Source of the DNA: Bacteroidota bacterium
GTDB lineage: Bacteria; Bacteroidota; Rhodothermia; Rhodothermales; UBA10348
Direction: 5' to 3'
DNA: 26,938 nucleotides
Assembly (NCBI GenBank): GCA_004356265.1
Contig: SMXK01000067.1
Coordinates: 1 to 26,938 of the forward strand
The stretch's first letter is position 1, and the number at the start of each line of letters is the position of its first letter. The notes beneath the pieces are model-generated. The model was given only the letters and a program-made list of their open reading frames with translations, was not told the DNA's origin and did not search any database. The translations under genes were made by a program, and so were the position numbers. Below, piece by piece: positions 3 through 8,453 of this stretch.

Positions 3-2237
3 CCGTGGGACGCTAAACATCTCCCTATAAAGAAAATCAAGTTTCTGAGCGACACAATCCTGCGCTTCGATGTGACGTCATCACAGGATGAAGAAGAGGA
101 CGAACTCGATGAGGAAGATGAGCTCGATGACGAAGAAAAAGATCAGGAGGACGATTCCGAAAAGGAAGAGGAGAAACCAGAGAAGAAGGTATTCCATTTC
201 GAGTATGATATAAACTCCCGAACGGTTCGGGAGCTCAGCGATTGGGAAGAACCAGATAACCACCCATCGTGGGCCGCGATTTCTCCGGATGGAAACACGG
301 TTGTATTCGGCCGGAATCACAATCTATGGTCGATCAGTGGCGACGTTTATGAGAAGGTGCTTGCAGCGCGGGTTGGAAAAACCGGCGATGATGCTGAAGA
401 AGCCGAGGATGAAATAGAAGTTACCGAGACACAACTGACCGAAGACGGAGTTGAGCATTATAGCTGGGTAGGCAGTTCTCGTGGTAAAGACACTGACCGA
501 GAGGAGAATAAAGACAAAAGAAAACGAGTCAGCGTGGCATGGTCTCATGATTCAGCGAAGTTTTCAATAGTCAGGCGCGACCAGCGGGAAGTGGGCGATC
601 TTTGGGTCATCCATTCTGTGGGAAATGAACGGCCAGAACTCGAGACCTATAAATATGATATGCCCGGAGAGGAGGACGTCACTCAGTCAGAGGTGATGCT
701 TTTTGACCTCGAGGACGGTACCGCTTTGATTCTGGACGCGGAATCATTTACGGACCAGTCGATTTCAGTATCAACTGCGCGGCAGTTCTTCTATCCCGAC
801 AGCGATGAGCCACGCAGGTCTTTATGGCTATCCGACGATTCTGAATTTTTCTACTTCAATCGGGCCTCCCGGGATCTTAAACGCGTCGATGTTTTGCGAG
901 CAAATACCGCGACCGGCGAGATTCAGGTTCTATTCGAGGAGAGACTCAACACATACATTGAGATGAAGCGATTGGAATTACTGGATTCAGGTGAAATGAT
1001 CTGGTGGTCAGAGCGAGACGGTTGGGGACATCTATATCGCTATGCTGCAGACGGGACTATCATAAACCAGATCACTCGCGGGCCGTTTTCGGTTCGCCGC
1101 ATACTGGATGTTGATGGGGCCAAAGGAGTGATCTATTTTACGGCCAATGCCAGGGAAAATGGCGAGGATCCTTATTTCCAACACATTTACCGCATAAATC
1201 TGGATGGAAGCGGAATGGAGCTGTTGAATTCCGGAGATTTCGATCACCGGACAAGCCTGGGCCCGTCGAAAAAATATTTTGTTGACAACTACTCCCGGGT
1301 TAACACCGTGCCCGCTGCCGGATTGTACAGTACAGCCGGACGGAAAGTGGTGGATCTCGAGACAGCCGACTTTGACAGATTGTTTGAGGCGGGGTATCAA
1401 TTTCCAGAACCGTTCACGGTAAAGGCCGGCGATCATATTACCGATCTGTATGGCGTGATGTACAAACCATTCGATTTCGACTCGACTAAGTCGTATCCCA
1501 TCGTTGAATATGTATATCCCGGACCCCAAACAGAATCGGTCTCTAAATCGTTCTCTACGAGTCGGTATGAGACTGCGCTGGCGCAGTTCGGAATCATCGT
1601 AGTGACAGTTGGCAACCGCGGCGGTCATCCTGCACGCTCCAAGTGGTATCATAATTATGGTTACGGCGATCTGCGAGATTATGGCTTGGAAGATAAAAAA
1701 GTGACTGTAGAACAGCTGGCCGACAGATTTGGCTATATCGATACTGAACGGGTGGGTATATATGGCCATTCGGGAGGTGGATTTATGTCCACAGCTGCTA
1801 TGTTGGTGTATCCAGACTTTTTCAAAGTCGCCGTATCGTCCTCGGGTAATCACACAAATGACGTGTACAATCGGTGGTGGTCCGAAAAACACCATGGTGT
1901 TGAAGAGGTTGAGAGTGATTCGGGCACCGTATCATTCAAGTACGACATTGATAAGAATCCGAGTCTTGCCGAAAACCTGAAGGGGCACCTTCTGTTAACT
2001 ACCGGCGATATTGACAATAACGTCCATCCTGCGAACACGTACCGAATGGTCGATGCCCTGATCAAAGCAAATAAACGTTTCGACTTTTTCTTGTTTACCG
2101 GTCAGCGCCATGGATATGGCAGTATGGCCAACTATTGGTTCTGGCTACGGGCAGAATATTTCGTAAAGCACCTTCTCGGGGATTATCGCTGGAACGTGGA
2201 TCTGATGGAATTGAATAGGGATAAAGCGAAGAGCTGA
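3..2237 (+). CDS. S9B family dipeptidyl-peptidase IV-like serine peptidase (DPPIV_N propeller + Peptidase_S9); 5'-truncated by the window edge
   Basis: The frame is open from the first full codon at 3 (PWDAKHLPIKKIKF...), so the ORF-track GTG at 72 is internal. It has the nucleophile motif GHSGGG, Asp motif GDIDNNVHP, His motif GQRHGY and propeller repeats (SPDG, WSHD, RDGWGHLY). Confidence 0.93.
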   Translation, partial: PWDAKHLPIKKIKFLSDTILRFDVTSSQDEEEDELDEEDELDDEEKDQEDDSEKEEEKPEKKVFHFEYDINSRTVRELSDWEEPDNHPSWAAISPDGNTVVFGRNHNLWSISGDVYEKVLAARVGKTGDDAEEAEDEIEVTETQLTEDGVEHYSWVGSSRGKDTDREENKDKRKRVSVAWSHDSAKFSIVRRDQREVGDLWVIHSVGNERPELETYKYDMPGEEDVTQSEVMLFDLEDGTALILDAESFTDQSISVSTARQFFYPDSDEPRRSLWLSDDSEFFYFNRASRDLKRVDVLRANTATGEIQVLFEERLNTYIEMKRLELLDSGEMIWWSERDGWGHLYRYAADGTIINQITRGPFSVRRILDVDGAKGVIYFTANARENGEDPYFQHIYRINLDGSGMELLNSGDFDHRTSLGPSKKYFVDNYSRVNTVPAAGLYSTAGRKVVDLETADFDRLFEAGYQFPEPFTVKAGDHITDLYGVMYKPFDFDSTKSYPIVEYVYPGPQTESVSKSFSTSRYETALAQFGIIVVTVGNRGGHPARSKWYHNYGYGDLRDYGLEDKKVTVEQLADRFGYIDTERVGIYGHSGGGFMSTAAMLVYPDFFKVAVSSSGNHTNDVYNRWWSEKHHGVEEVESDSGTVSFKYDIDKNPSLAENLKGHLLLTTGDIDNNVHPANTYRMVDALIKANKRFDFFLFTGQRHGYGSMANYWFWLRAEYFVKHLLGDYRWNVDLMELNRDKAKS

Positions 2238-2276
2238 ATTCGGCCGTAAGAAGTCCGTTCTGGATCCGCGTCAATT

Positions 2277-3161
2277 TTAAAATACGCGGTTGATCACAAA
2301 TCCGAATCGGATGTCTCCATCAGCAAATGATTCGCTGTTTCTGGCCATGACGTGTTGTTCGGTGAGCCACTGCGACGTTTTCAAGAATAGCTGAAAAACG
2401 TGCCCGCCTGTTTCGAAGTTTACCGCAATAGCAAAGGCATCAACAGTGTCTGTTGTGCGCTCACCGAGTACTGGTAGATACTCTGCCAGTAAGGAAATCT
2501 GTTCAGTCAGGAGGTACCGCATGGCAAATCCGATCGCGTAATGTGTGTTTTGTTCAAGGCTGACGGGTACACCGCCATCGGTTTCACCGAAAACCGTGTT
2601 GAAATGAGAAACCATTCCTGTTATTTGAAGACTGATCTTGTCTGACATTCTACGTGCCAGAAGAATGCTCCCAAAATAATTCAGTCGATCAATGAACTCG
2701 AAACCGTTTGCCACTGACATGATGCCAACATCACCGACCAGGGCGATTTCTATCGGTATCGCGTTATCCTTCGTTTGTCGGAGAACGTTCCATTTTGCGC
2801 GGAAGTCATATAATTTATCGAGTCGGGAGCGACCAACACCGAGGGATAAACGGTCTGTTATTCCATAGTCCAATCCAAACCGGATATTCGCCGGATCGTC
2901 CATACCCCAAAGCGACTGAATACCACCGTTCAATTTTCCAAACACATGCATGATGGTGAAATTCCAGTTTCGCGCATCGAGATTTTGGACAGAACTGCTT
3001 ATGACGATTTTTGGCGTCAGGAATAGTTCATCCACGGGTCCGCCGGGATCAGCACGTTTCCGATCCATCTGAGCGATCGCATCCGTTTGAATCCCGCTCA
3101 CAATACATGCGGCCAAAATGACTACTATCGAAGAATATCTCTTAAACACGGGAAAATTCAT
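2277..3161 (-). CDS. DUF5777-family outer-membrane beta-barrel protein
   Basis: Signal peptide ending AIA|Q, family-like segments (HVFG..., ANIRFGLDYGITDRLSLGVGRS, ETGGHVFQL), alternating beta-strand pattern and C-terminal Phe (INRVF) typical of BAM substrates. Confidence 0.8.
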   Translation of the reverse strand: MNFPVFKRYSSIVVILAACIVSGIQTDAIAQMDRKRADPGGPVDELFLTPKIVISSSVQNLDARNWNFTIMHVFGKLNGGIQSLWGMDDPANIRFGLDYGITDRLSLGVGRSRLDKLYDFRAKWNVLRQTKDNAIPIEIALVGDVGIMSVANGFEFIDRLNYFGSILLARRMSDKISLQITGMVSHFNTVFGETDGGVPVSLEQNTHYAIGFAMRYLLTEQISLLAEYLPVLGERTTDTVDAFAIAVNFETGGHVFQLFLKTSQWLTEQHVMARNSESFADGDIRFGFVINRVF

Positions 3162-3730
3162 TCTGAAATGCGTTGTAGCGTCGCTGTGATAGTAATTCGC
3201 TGGTCTTCATCGACTTTAAATATCAATAATTTGGGCGGCTCGATATTGTAGTCACCAAGTCGCAATATCCATGACGCGCTTAGAATCAATGTTTCGCCTG
3301 ATACCTTAATTTCACCCGTAATCGTAACCGGGCGCGTCACGCCATTAATTGAAAAATCCCCTATCGCCGTGACCGGGTAAGAGTTGTCCGAAGTGGGATC
3401 GATGGCGCCATGAAGTCTCCCATAAAACTCTGCGAACGGATTTTTTTTCGTACCCAGGGTCTGACGCATATCTTTGTCTCGCTTACCTATTCCCGTTTTT
3501 AGAGATTCAAGATCAAGATAGAAATCAAGAGTGGAATCAGGAAAACTGATGCGCCCGGCGAGATACTCTGATTCTCCGGTAAACTCGAACAACGGCATGC
3601 TGGATACAAATGCTGCGTGCCCCGACTCGGTAGCCCATACTTGTGCGGCGGCAGTGTCGCTTATGAAAACGAGAGAGAGATTGGCGGCAATCGCGACAAG
3701 GAAGCAGATTTTGTAGAATGACATTCTCAT
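3158..3730 (-). CDS. YceI-family periplasmic polyisoprenoid/lipid-binding protein
   Basis: Signal peptide ending AAA|Q and YceI motifs (SLKTGIGKRDKDMR, GDFSINGVTRPV, DYNIEPP). Its stop overlaps the next ATG by 4 bp (3158-3161). An alternative ATG lies at 3724. Confidence 0.9.
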   Translation of the reverse strand: MRMSFYKICFLVAIAANLSLVFISDTAAAQVWATESGHAAFVSSMPLFEFTGESEYLAGRISFPDSTLDFYLDLESLKTGIGKRDKDMRQTLGTKKNPFAEFYGRLHGAIDPTSDNSYPVTAIGDFSINGVTRPVTITGEIKVSGETLILSASWILRLGDYNIEPPKLLIFKVDEDQRITITATLQRISE

Positions 3731-3741
3731 CAGACTCGCTT

Positions 3742-4152
3742 CTAATTATCCTTTGCACCCTGATTGATCCAGTCCCGGATTGTTTGGATCTGCTCGCTGC
3801 TAAGTGTCGGTGCATTCAAAGGCATTCTTGACCCGTTCTCAGGGGAAGGACTGATCTTGTCGATTATCGGACTGTCGGTCGCGTTACCCGCTTCGATGAC
3901 ATTTATCCCATACACGAGGCCAACACTGCTGAGAGCTGAGTCGTGTGTCGATAAATCTACACCATTCGTTGCCTGAGAAATATGACATAATGCCCCACCA
4001 CACGTAGCCTGAAAAATAGGATTTACTTGTGTTGCGTAGCTGACTGGATCCGACGGAATTTCTCCGATTTCAGTTAGAATGGTCTCATTCTGGCATGCTG
4101 GAAACAACGAAGTCAGGACCAGCAAGGCGGCGCCAGCAATCCGTCTGATCAA
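3742..4152 (-). CDS. Monoheme c-type cytochrome lipoprotein (planctomycete-type cytochrome c domain) with CX4CH motif
   Basis: Lipobox-like LFPA|C20, CGGALCH at residues 51-57 (nt 4002-3982), candidate distal Met in SRMPL (M110) and C-terminal IRDWINQGAKDN typical of this domain. Confidence 0.75.
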   Translation of the reverse strand: MIRRIAGAALLVLTSLFPACQNETILTEIGEIPSDPVSYATQVNPIFQATCGGALCHISQATNGVDLSTHDSALSSVGLVYGINVIEAGNATDSPIIDKISPSPENGSRMPLNAPTLSSEQIQTIRDWINQGAKDN

Positions 4153-5036
4153 AATGGCGCCTCTTGTACGTTTTTCATCATTTCCCGCGTCTTTCCAATC
4201 GCATCACGTCCGTTCATTTGATAGACCCAATATCTTTCCACGCCCTCCGTTCTCATGAAAAGCTGCATGGTGCCCTGCGTTTTGTGCTCAGCAATCATCC
4301 AATTTGCGATGATATTGTAGTTAAGCCTGCCATCCTGCCCGAACGGGGTACTTCTGTCGAATGTGAACGGGCCGTCCTTGAAGATTCTGGTCTCAGGATG
4401 TCCCTCCAATTCGGTAAACTTGGCGACGACATCATCCATCATTCCGGTAACGAATCCTCCAAGAATAATCGGACGATCGTTTTTATCCATTCTGGAGACG
4501 GCCTGAATGGCCAGAATTGTCGCGGCTTTGTGATGAGAATGAAACGGCTTGATCGGCAAATGGGTGAAAACGAAATCATAGTCTCCTTTGTCAAGAAAAT
4601 AGTCGAGCCTCTCAGCTACAAATTTTCTGTCCCAGACAAACGCCAGAATTGAATCCTGATCTTCGGTCTTTCCAAGGTCCGGCTGGTCCAAAAACATGTA
4701 GTTCCGAATACCCGCAATCAATCCCCCAGCCATCAATTCTCGTTTTCGTATTGCCGGAAGATGTGTCCTGGCCGTCTCCGGATCTGTCAGATCCAGCCCG
4801 TAGATAGCCCCGGCAAGAGTGGAAAATCGATACCCACCAGCTCCATCAGTCACCAGCGCAAGGTCGACGCTTCCACCAAGAGCGTGGGAAACCCGGTACA
4901 TGGTAGCCGCAAACATTACCTCGTCGTCGGGATGCGCAGTCACCACCAAAATTTTTGGCGATTGATTGCTCATCTGAGCGGCAACGGGCGAGGCGCATAC
5001 AGACGAAACTAGAACCAGAAGAAGTAATCGGTACAT
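4149..5036 (-). CDS. Exported PIG-L/LmbE-family Zn-dependent N-acetyl deacetylase
   Basis: AHPDDE motif, RKREL segment and second metal motif HSHH. Signal peptide ends VAA|Q. It overlaps the cytochrome gene by 4 bp. Confidence 0.88.
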   Translation of the reverse strand: MYRLLLLVLVSSVCASPVAAQMSNQSPKILVVTAHPDDEVMFAATMYRVSHALGGSVDLALVTDGAGGYRFSTLAGAIYGLDLTDPETARTHLPAIRKRELMAGGLIAGIRNYMFLDQPDLGKTEDQDSILAFVWDRKFVAERLDYFLDKGDYDFVFTHLPIKPFHSHHKAATILAIQAVSRMDKNDRPIILGGFVTGMMDDVVAKFTELEGHPETRIFKDGPFTFDRSTPFGQDGRLNYNIIANWMIAEHKTQGTMQLFMRTEGVERYWVYQMNGRDAIGKTREMMKNVQEAPF

Positions 5037-5190
5037 GGTTGGGCGGTGTCGATCGATGTTAGAGTTTTTTTCACTCCTGTATATACGGATGATAAGGGAA
5101 TGTTCGATTTGTTTGAAGGCAGGAATCAGACACCTTACCTTGGTATGAATGCATCACAGATTTGTCATCTATTAATGTATACAGGCTCAC

Positions 5191-8453
<3,263 letters not shown>

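Follow-up and report, generated by a model that had tools for sequence, protein, structure and literature searches.

What might a small heme-type lipoprotein, a YceI lipocalin, and an outer-membrane barrel of the DUF5777 family do together when their genes are packed head to tail? This question is raised by positions 2277-4152 of a contig from a Bacteroidota bacterium of the order Rhodothermales (GenBank assembly GCA_004356265.1, contig SMXK01000067.1). The whole stretch analyzed, positions 1 to 26,938 of the contig, is referred to here as the window; all coordinates are window positions unless another locus or contig is named, and the window genome is the 1.9-Mb assembly, 74.7% complete, to which it belongs. 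An original prediction, made from the sequence alone, had described three tightly packed co-directional genes whose two junctions are an 11-bp gap and a 4-bp overlap, which is exact at these coordinates, and had proposed that their products form one complex joining a quinone-like carrier, a heme, and an outer-membrane pore. No paper in the literature searched names DUF5777 or its Pfam entry PF19089, in agreement with the claim that the family has no assigned function, and no description of the three-gene module was found there. Judged from conserved gene neighborhoods, the set of YceI protein, barrel, and small carrier recurs across Bacteroidota, and its most likely role is single-electron transfer at the outer membrane. 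The features concerned are as follows.

2277-3161, minus strand: DUF5777 outer-membrane barrel, 294 amino acids (Pfam PF19089; signal peptide ending ...AIAQ; C-terminal Phe)
2400-2402, minus strand: His254 codon of the barrel (TGGHVFQ motif, start of strand 11), invariant in 71 aligned barrels
2946-2948, minus strand: His72 codon of the barrel (HRFG motif, strand 1), invariant in 71 aligned barrels
3158-3730, minus strand: periplasmic YceI-family lipocalin, 190 amino acids (Pfam PF04264; type I signal peptide)
3742-4152, minus strand: predicted mono-heme c-type cytochrome lipoprotein of the PSCyt1/FoxE type, 136 amino acids (TTG start)
3820-3825, minus strand: Met110-Pro111 of the cytochrome, likely distal heme ligand (from conservation and alignment with the FoxE RMP motif)
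3982-4002, minus strand: putative heme-attachment motif Cys51-Gly-Gly-Ala-Leu-Cys56-His57 (CX4CH) of the cytochrome, read from the sequence

The linkage of these genes was followed in two sets of DUF5777 loci. An even sample took 8 kb on each side of 80 DUF5777 genes and gave 82 barrels; a second set comprised the 80 best relatives from species-representative genomes (79 barrels), found with an 18-sequence barrel alignment and biased toward relatives of the window. Open reading frames (ORFs) in these neighborhoods were called by a simple longest-ORF rule, and the hidden Markov models of the window proteins were built from the same loci as were scored. Within 3 kb of the barrel and on the same strand, a YceI gene was found for 71% of the even sample and 94% of the second set, a gene of the cytochrome family for 78% and 80%, and a Rieske protein gene for 6% and 19%, respectively; 11% of the even sample and 0% of the second set had none of the three. 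Most partners lie within 1 kb of the barrel (YceI, 66/74; cytochrome, 66/80). Because there are only five YceI genes in the 1.9 Mb of the window genome, where the other paralogues occupy unrelated contexts, chance adjacency would be expected at about 1%, against the 71-94% seen across the phylum. The co-occurrence thus extends, over 161 DUF5777 genes, well beyond close relatives; a restriction to close relatives, which would have refuted the original prediction, was not seen. The window's arrangement of cytochrome, YceI, and barrel is both the simplest form and the commonest architecture (37 of the 161 operons), followed by versions with an added OB-fold lipoprotein (PF12869). Strains of Gracilimonas, Algoriphagus, Runella, Flectobacillus, and Hymenobacter are candidate cultivable hosts of this three-gene cassette. 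Among the best 80 relatives, the closest named ones are Rhodothermales and Balneolaceae genomes, in line with membership of the window in the class Rhodothermia. At three loci (L062, L064, and L107), the barrel has neither YceI nor cytochrome beside it and instead follows an AhpC/TSA peroxiredoxin and a protein of about 600 amino acids with M23 peptidase and Big_13 domains.

The position taken by the cytochrome in the window is not always filled by a heme protein. A cytochrome stands alone in this carrier slot in 115 operons, and combinations of carriers are rare. In 13 operons, the slot holds only a Rieske [2Fe-2S] lipoprotein exported by the twin-arginine translocation (Tat) route, with four more in which it accompanies a cytochrome; a plastocyanin/azurin-type cupredoxin lipoprotein occupies the slot alone in two operons and together with a cytochrome in one. 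The cupredoxin genes lie upstream of YceI and barrel in Balneolaceae relatives (L116, 2215-2730; L040, 9437-9865; L106, 6262-6702, the last beside a cytochrome). Because three unrelated small one-electron carriers share one position, we argue that the conserved role of the slot is one-electron transfer; the same observation speaks against heme transport or chemistry tied to a single cofactor. The redox role that had been proposed is therefore strengthened by the replacement of the cytochrome with Rieske and cupredoxin lipoproteins.

In some genomes, carrier and barrel are joined in one polypeptide. Two loci from the order to which the window belongs (L033, 7989-9254, and L034, 7989-9227) encode single proteins of 421 and 412 amino acids, composed of a signal peptide, a cytochrome domain with CX4CH and Met-Pro, a Pro-rich linker, and a DUF5777 barrel. 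Since the barrel termini are periplasmic, the heme domain of these fusions should lie on the periplasmic face. A third protein of 456 amino acids (P0091) carries a Reeler-type domain with a CXXCH motif (CTECH) in front of its DUF5777 barrel.

The identity of the small protein required closer analysis. The original prediction had called it a c-type heme lipoprotein; its membership of a cytochrome family is borne out by an invariant C..CH motif and a match to FoxE, but the canonical CXXCH motif is absent from all 136 residues, and the only heme-type motif is CX4CH. CX4CH sites are known from multiheme cytochromes c3. A word-indexed homologue search with the protein returned its own cluster only, and homologues were gathered from the DUF5777 gene neighborhoods instead (80 members, 61 of them aligned). 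Every one of the 80 members has a heme motif (48 CXXCH and 34 CX4CH; 0/80 without), and CX2CH and CX4CH alternate in identical alignment columns of the 61 homologues. Invariant in this alignment are C20, C51, C56, H57, and W128, and at least 90% of the sequences retain Met110-Pro111. The lipobox (LFPA-C20) is atypical, although its Cys, which follows a hydrophobic stretch, is among the invariant residues. When the 61 homologues were scanned singly against Pfam (E up to 0.01), 28 matched Cytochrome_CBB3, 21 PSCyt1, 10 Cytochrom_C, and 7 PccH. The family profile matched both domains of FoxE (PDB 5mab; E 1e-10), and the alignment brought the C..CH, RMP, and W-I-x-x-G-A elements into register; further matches, at 1e-6 to 1e-3, were to class I cytochromes such as c6 and c551/c552.

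Modeling led in the same direction. The AlphaFold (AF2) model of the cytochrome has a predicted local distance difference test (pLDDT) score of 88, and a fold search with it returned weak matches; almost all of the best were domains of c-type cytochromes (hydrazine synthase alpha, FoxE, PccH, c6, and c551). A cytochrome c assembly gene (PF01578) is present in the window genome. From these sequence features, we read the small protein as a His/Met-ligated, one-heme c-type cytochrome lipoprotein, presumably with covalent heme at CX4CH. A second match to the cytochrome family in the window genome (contig C203, about 5435-5824) falls inside an ORF of 1107 amino acids that reaches the contig end and is probably a large PSCyt1-type multidomain protein.

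The other two assignments are more straightforward. The YceI protein scores 51.2 bits against Pfam PF04264 (cut-off 23.7), and its family profile matches solved YceI structures, namely E. coli 1y0g (2.6e-13), 5ixg (3.9e-12), 1wub (5.6e-06), and also 3hpe; the protein can thus be kept, as predicted, as a periplasmic YceI lipocalin. Isoprenoids and other lipids are known ligands of YceI proteins (PMC8981238; PMC9113575). The barrel scores 253.1 bits against PF19089 (cut-off 23.1) over model positions 1-247 and ends in ...NRVF; together with a 12-strand AF2 model (pLDDT 92.8, from a 71-sequence alignment), these data uphold its description as a DUF5777 barrel with a C-terminal Phe. It is the only DUF5777 copy found in the window genome. 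The family itself is large: a library of 1.84 billion proteins contains 3348 of its cluster representatives (E up to 1e-3), and it is present in 87 of 201 Bacteroidota genomes sampled evenly over the phylum. Anaerobiosis does not account for its absence from many Bacteroidota: a heme-copper oxidase is found in 185 of the 201 sampled genomes, and in family f15 the oxidase occurs in 29 of 39 genomes and the barrel in 0 of 39. In a member of another class of the phylum, a tandem double barrel was observed, with two DUF5777 domains in one frame of about 610 amino acids (L052, 7857-9677; P0002).

What the barrel can hold bears directly on what it can do. An alignment-independent structure search ranked FapF (Z 17.9; root-mean-square deviation (rmsd) 3.8 Angstrom over 216 residues), KdgM (Z 17.8; rmsd 2.1 Angstrom over 166 residues), and the COG4313 channel (Z 16.9) at the top, with NanC and autotransporter barrels also among the best matches; the identity of the top matches is 4-12%. 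Foldseek against the PDB returned generic barrels only, with a template modeling (TM) score of about 0.5, and the fold points to no functional family. In the model, the barrel lumen is probably occupied, because the N-terminal segment, which contains the invariant Phe47, aligns with the plugged barrels FapF (from residue 44) and COG4313 (from residue 54). Eight residues are invariant in the 71 barrels: F47, H72, F74, G86, H254, F256, G287, and F288. Judged by the alternation of hydrophobic and polar columns, the hydrophobic side that faces the membrane would carry H72/F74 of strand 1, H254/F256 of strand 11, and F288 of strand 12, with H254 at the periplasmic end of its strand and H72 higher up. 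A bis-His heme site formed by H72 and H254 in the lumen was considered and is not supported, as both residues appear to fall on the hydrophobic face, at different heights.

Taken together, the findings suggest a scheme that we put forward tentatively: the module may be a one-electron relay anchored at the inner face of the outer membrane, of which the window holds the minimal version for the class Rhodothermia. The 12-strand DUF5777 barrel would serve as a membrane platform, with the FoxE/PSCyt1-type one-heme lipoprotein seated on its periplasmic side. Soluble YceI would ferry a polyisoprenoid quinol, probably menaquinol, from the cytoplasmic membrane across the periplasm to this platform, where a high-potential heme (elsewhere a Rieske or blue-copper center) would oxidize it. 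The final acceptors of the electrons would be oxidants within the outer membrane or at its surface, such as lipid radicals and reactive oxygen, or alternatively, in relatives with secreted heme or copper proteins, on surface redox proteins. What we infer here is that heme attaches at CX4CH, that the ligand is a quinol, that YceI docks physically, and in which direction and onto which acceptor the electrons pass; this direction is preferred because menaquinol can reduce His/Met cytochromes, Rieske centers, and cupredoxins, and the reverse would presumably be uphill.

Two described systems offer precedents for such a relay. In Burkholderia cenocepacia, the secreted YceI-family protein BcnA is genetically coupled to a heme protein, the cytochrome b561 LcoA (yceI-yceJ in E. 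coli), and the authors proposed that the cytochrome re-reduces the lipocalin-held quinone, which quenches lipid peroxyl radicals (PMC9113575). The proposed logic, in which cytochrome and quinone exchange electrons through a lipocalin, is the same, and the fusions found in some taxa are parallel in kind. LcoA, however, is an inner-membrane di-heme cytochrome, whereas the present carrier is a lipid-anchored one-heme c-type protein, or a Rieske or cupredoxin protein; moreover, the module adds a dedicated outer-membrane barrel, which would shift the site of action to the outer membrane. No match to cytochrome b561 (PF01292) was found in the window genome at its 74.7% completeness. Cbp2D and Cbp2E of Cellvibrio japonicus, which transfer electrons outside the cytoplasm, combine c-type cytochrome domains with a YceI-like domain of a kind known to bind ubiquinone-8, as the X158 domain of Saccharophagus does (PMC8981238). 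Each of these Cbp2 proteins is one secreted polypeptide of several domains, CBM2 among them, and feeds polysaccharide monooxygenases; the module, by contrast, consists of separate small proteins and a barrel, and no carbohydrate-binding module was found by Pfam in its proteins.

The neighborhoods seen in relatives are consistent with a role in envelope stress or surface redox chemistry. Some 12% of the modules are preceded by two regulatory genes, one for an extracytoplasmic function (ECF) sigma factor and one that is anti-sigma-like, whose product ends in an OMP_b-brl_2 barrel. The Dma/Reo family, whose proteins span both membranes and sense the outer one, is built in this way, and a link between Reo/EcfO and oxidative stress has been made in B. 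fragilis (PMC10927553). A few barrels lie beside a peroxiredoxin, and others beside heme proteins that are secreted by the type IX secretion system (T9SS) or are of the EB_dh type.

Whether the three proteins form one complex, as had been proposed, has a divided answer. A conserved functional unit is borne out by the linkage described above; for a physical complex, a three-chain prediction of YceI against barrel plus cytochrome returned 'weak support', with a score of 0.36 against 0.00 for the best of three controls. Of 80 solved complexes, 58 reach the mark used in this prediction, as do 2 of 110 mismatched pairs; 7 of the 80 solved complexes and both mismatches reach it at 0.60 or under. Prediction runs agreed in at least 81% of contacts, and the pLDDT of the partner, YceI, was at least 84; no interface was reported. 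Docking of YceI to the barrel-cytochrome pair thus has weak support from modeling, which adds a little to the case.

Several points weigh against the proposed relay. One is the low score of the complex prediction itself. The small protein of the window falls short of the Pfam entry PSCyt1 (PF07635), with 17.9 bits for a cut-off of 22, and its CX4CH motif departs from the canonical CXXCH. The barrel has no recognizable cofactor site, its two invariant His residues appearing to face lipid at different heights. A lipoprotein of the outer membrane is beyond direct reach of the respiratory chain, and bridging by YceI is an assumption. In the three loci whose barrels are most similar to that of the window (L112-L114; 50-60% identity), the operon contains YceI and barrel but no redox gene, and 26 of the 161 operons are likewise without a redox carrier; the heme partner is therefore either not obligatory or encoded elsewhere. 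Ten of the 161 have cytochrome and barrel without YceI. Finally, a second YceI cluster in the window genome (L196, 2580-5287, contig C218) consists of two tandem YceI genes followed by a gene for a 439-amino-acid porin-like outer-membrane protein, which has no Pfam match and whose Atlas neighbors are labeled 'porin family', some of them Porin_O_P. This cluster contains no redox gene, and YceI can evidently pair with barrels for non-redox reasons.

Of the other explanations, an exchange of electrons with the outside of the cell survives best, and we consider it unlikely. The module would then be a trans-outer-membrane redox unit, either a Cyc2-like minimal cytochrome-porin or a site of periplasmic Fe(II) oxidation, in which Fe(II) enters through the barrel and is oxidized by the FoxE-like heme; electrons would flow inward to oxidases, and YceI would be an accessory. 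The closest solved relative of the cytochrome is indeed FoxE, described as a putative iron oxidase, and the L033 and L034 fusions share the domain order of Cyc2. T9SS-secreted or EB_dh/Reeler-type heme or copper proteins occur in the operons of some relatives; a TonB receptor, a FecR-like gene, and an ECF sigma gene lie upstream in L109-L111; and DNA of the organism is found in marine sediment and subsurface metagenomes. Against these observations stands the barrel, which has 12 strands, resembles plugged barrels, and leaves no room for a heme domain inside. There is a single heme, and no cofactor spans the membrane of ~25-30 Angstrom. In the fusions, the cytochrome precedes strand 1 and is thus periplasmic; the replacement of the heme protein by Rieske or cupredoxin lipoproteins speaks against iron-oxidase chemistry specific to heme; and an outer-membrane lipoprotein has no evident route to inner-membrane oxidases.

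The same evidence separates the module from the known outer-membrane conduits. Like MtrCAB, PioAB/MtoAB, Geobacter Pcc, and Cyc2, it has a barrel gene adjoining or fused with a c-type cytochrome gene, and an envelope redox role is likely. Those systems, however, have 8-10 or more hemes and a sheath of 16 to 26 strands, whereas the present module has one heme and 12 strands, and its heme domain cannot lie inside. As modeled, therefore, the module is not a conduit of the Mtr/Pio/Pcc type. The porin-cytochrome analogy drawn in the original prediction accordingly falls: there is one heme rather than many, and the closest folds of the 12-strand barrel include the plugged FapF and COG4313 rather than a wide sheath. 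Cyc2 unites heme domain and porin in one polypeptide, whereas the window has separate genes; L033 and L034 are fused, but to a 12-strand DUF5777 barrel.

Comparison with the nearest solved proteins brings out further differences. FoxE of Rhodobacter ferrooxidans SW2 (PDB 5mab, 5mvo), the best solved sequence relative of the cytochrome, shares the C..CH and RMP motifs and the C-terminal W-I-x-x-G-A helix; it is, however, a soluble, two-domain, di-heme protein with CXXCH, encoded in the foxEYZ operon of a phototroph, whereas the window protein has one domain, CX4CH, and a lipid anchor, and is encoded with YceI and a barrel. FapF, KdgM/NanC, and the COG4313 channel (PDB 5o65, 4pr7, 2wjr, 4rl8) share the 12-strand fold with DUF5777 (Z 16.6-17.9; rmsd 2.1-4.0 Angstrom over 166-216 residues), but at 4-12% identity, with no shared motif and with unrelated functions and gene contexts.

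A second alternative leaves electron transfer in a subordinate position. In this case, the barrel would be a channel in the style of COG4313 or FadL that imports a hydrophobic molecule and hands it to YceI, and the redox lipoprotein would do no more than oxidize or reduce the ligand. Structural neighbors of the barrel are suggestive in this respect, as they include the hydrophobic-compound channel COG4313 (Z 16.9), FadL/TodX (Z 11-13), and the lipid-acting LpxR and OMPLA, and the conserved His/Phe patch appears to face the membrane; the affinity of YceI proteins for isoprenoids and other lipids (PMC8981238; PMC9113575) also agrees with such a role. A lipid hand-off by the YceI-barrel pair is kept in view because of the carrier-less operons, among them L112-L114 and 11 operons of YceI and barrel, and because of the YceI-YceI-porin cluster of the window genome. 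It is nevertheless distinctly unlikely: a one-electron carrier lies near 84-91% of barrels, ten operons have cytochrome and barrel with no YceI, and in the sets examined the barrel is fused to heme-motif domains and never to YceI. Nor do the operons contain recurring catabolic or transporter genes.

The apparently membrane-facing His residues also permit a variant that we regard as a long shot. Here, a lipid-soluble carrier rather than a heme wire would take electrons across the outer membrane. YceI would load menaquinone at the barrel into an outer-membrane quinone pool, H254 (near the periplasmic leaflet) and H72 (nearer the outer leaflet) would act as quinone sites, and the docked carrier would oxidize or reduce the quinone on the periplasmic side. 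If true, such a pool could serve surface redox proteins or quench lipid radicals, by a mechanism without a described counterpart.

Metal handling, in which iron or copper would enter through the barrel and be oxidized or reduced by the redox lipoprotein in the course of uptake or detoxification, appears very unlikely. It could draw on the cupredoxin, Rieske, and FoxE-like partners, on the PcoB copper transporter barrel as a structural neighbor (Z 10.7), on the TonB/FecR/ECF context at a few loci, and on a YceI-like gene that is mildly induced by iron limitation in Riemerella (PMC5429918). AlphaFold cluster neighbors of the barrel fold also include entries named blue-copper and NosL, but these names describe whole entries, at 10-14% identity. 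The operons show no recurring metal chaperone, permease, or metal regulator, no metal role is known for YceI, and the invariant His residues appear to face lipid rather than the lumen. That the genes are chance neighbors, or merely co-transcribed with no shared function, has a next to negligible probability, given a linkage kept across classes of the phylum, the fusions in some genomes, and partners within 1 kb.

The relay set out above would operate from a locus that is slightly larger than had been described. Four ORFs run head to tail on the minus strand (4149-5036, 3742-4152, 3158-3730, and 2277-3161), where the first and last pairs overlap by 4 bp (ATGA in the last) and the middle pair is 11 bp apart, and all four encoded proteins have N-terminal signal sequences. 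The cytochrome, YceI, and barrel genes of the run were correctly recognized in the original prediction, but its three-gene extent was not, as it missed the upstream gene:

4149-5036, minus strand: secreted PIG-L/LmbE-type deacetylase, 295 amino acids (Pfam PF02585; signal peptide)

This ORF scores 55.8 bits against PF02585 (cut-off 28.2), and its stop overlaps the TTG start of the cytochrome gene by 4 bp, so that the two are translationally coupled. The transcription unit in the window genome is thus probably one of four genes. PIG-L was considered as a member of the module and ruled out, since no homologue was found near the 160 other DUF5777 loci; it is a lineage-specific first gene of the run. 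PIG-L/LmbE-family enzymes are cytoplasmic as a rule.

A scan of positions 2000-5400 for promoters and terminators gave counts not above those of shuffled sequence, and no RNA datasets holding the window stretch are listed. Two runs labeled 'METATRANSCRIPTOMIC WGA' contain short contigs on all four genes, most of them 99-100% identical and one ~95%; their RNA status is a guess, they may contain DNA, and they are not evidence of expression. DNA nearly identical to positions 1800-5600 occurs in marine sediment, subsurface, and marine metagenomes from at least five studies, and the strain variants of this stretch show scattered differences, mostly at third-codon-like positions.

DUF5777 thus emerges as a large family almost always tied to small one-electron carriers and YceI. 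Should the module prove to be a redox station of the outer membrane, it would shed light on the ways in which aerobic Bacteroidota protect or use this membrane, where there is no respiratory chain, and also on what the enigmatic YceI family does. The natural fusions of cytochrome and barrel in the window's own order provide a ready-made object for structural work. If the proposed relay is true, it would represent a third design for linking a cytochrome with an outer-membrane barrel, beside the two already known.

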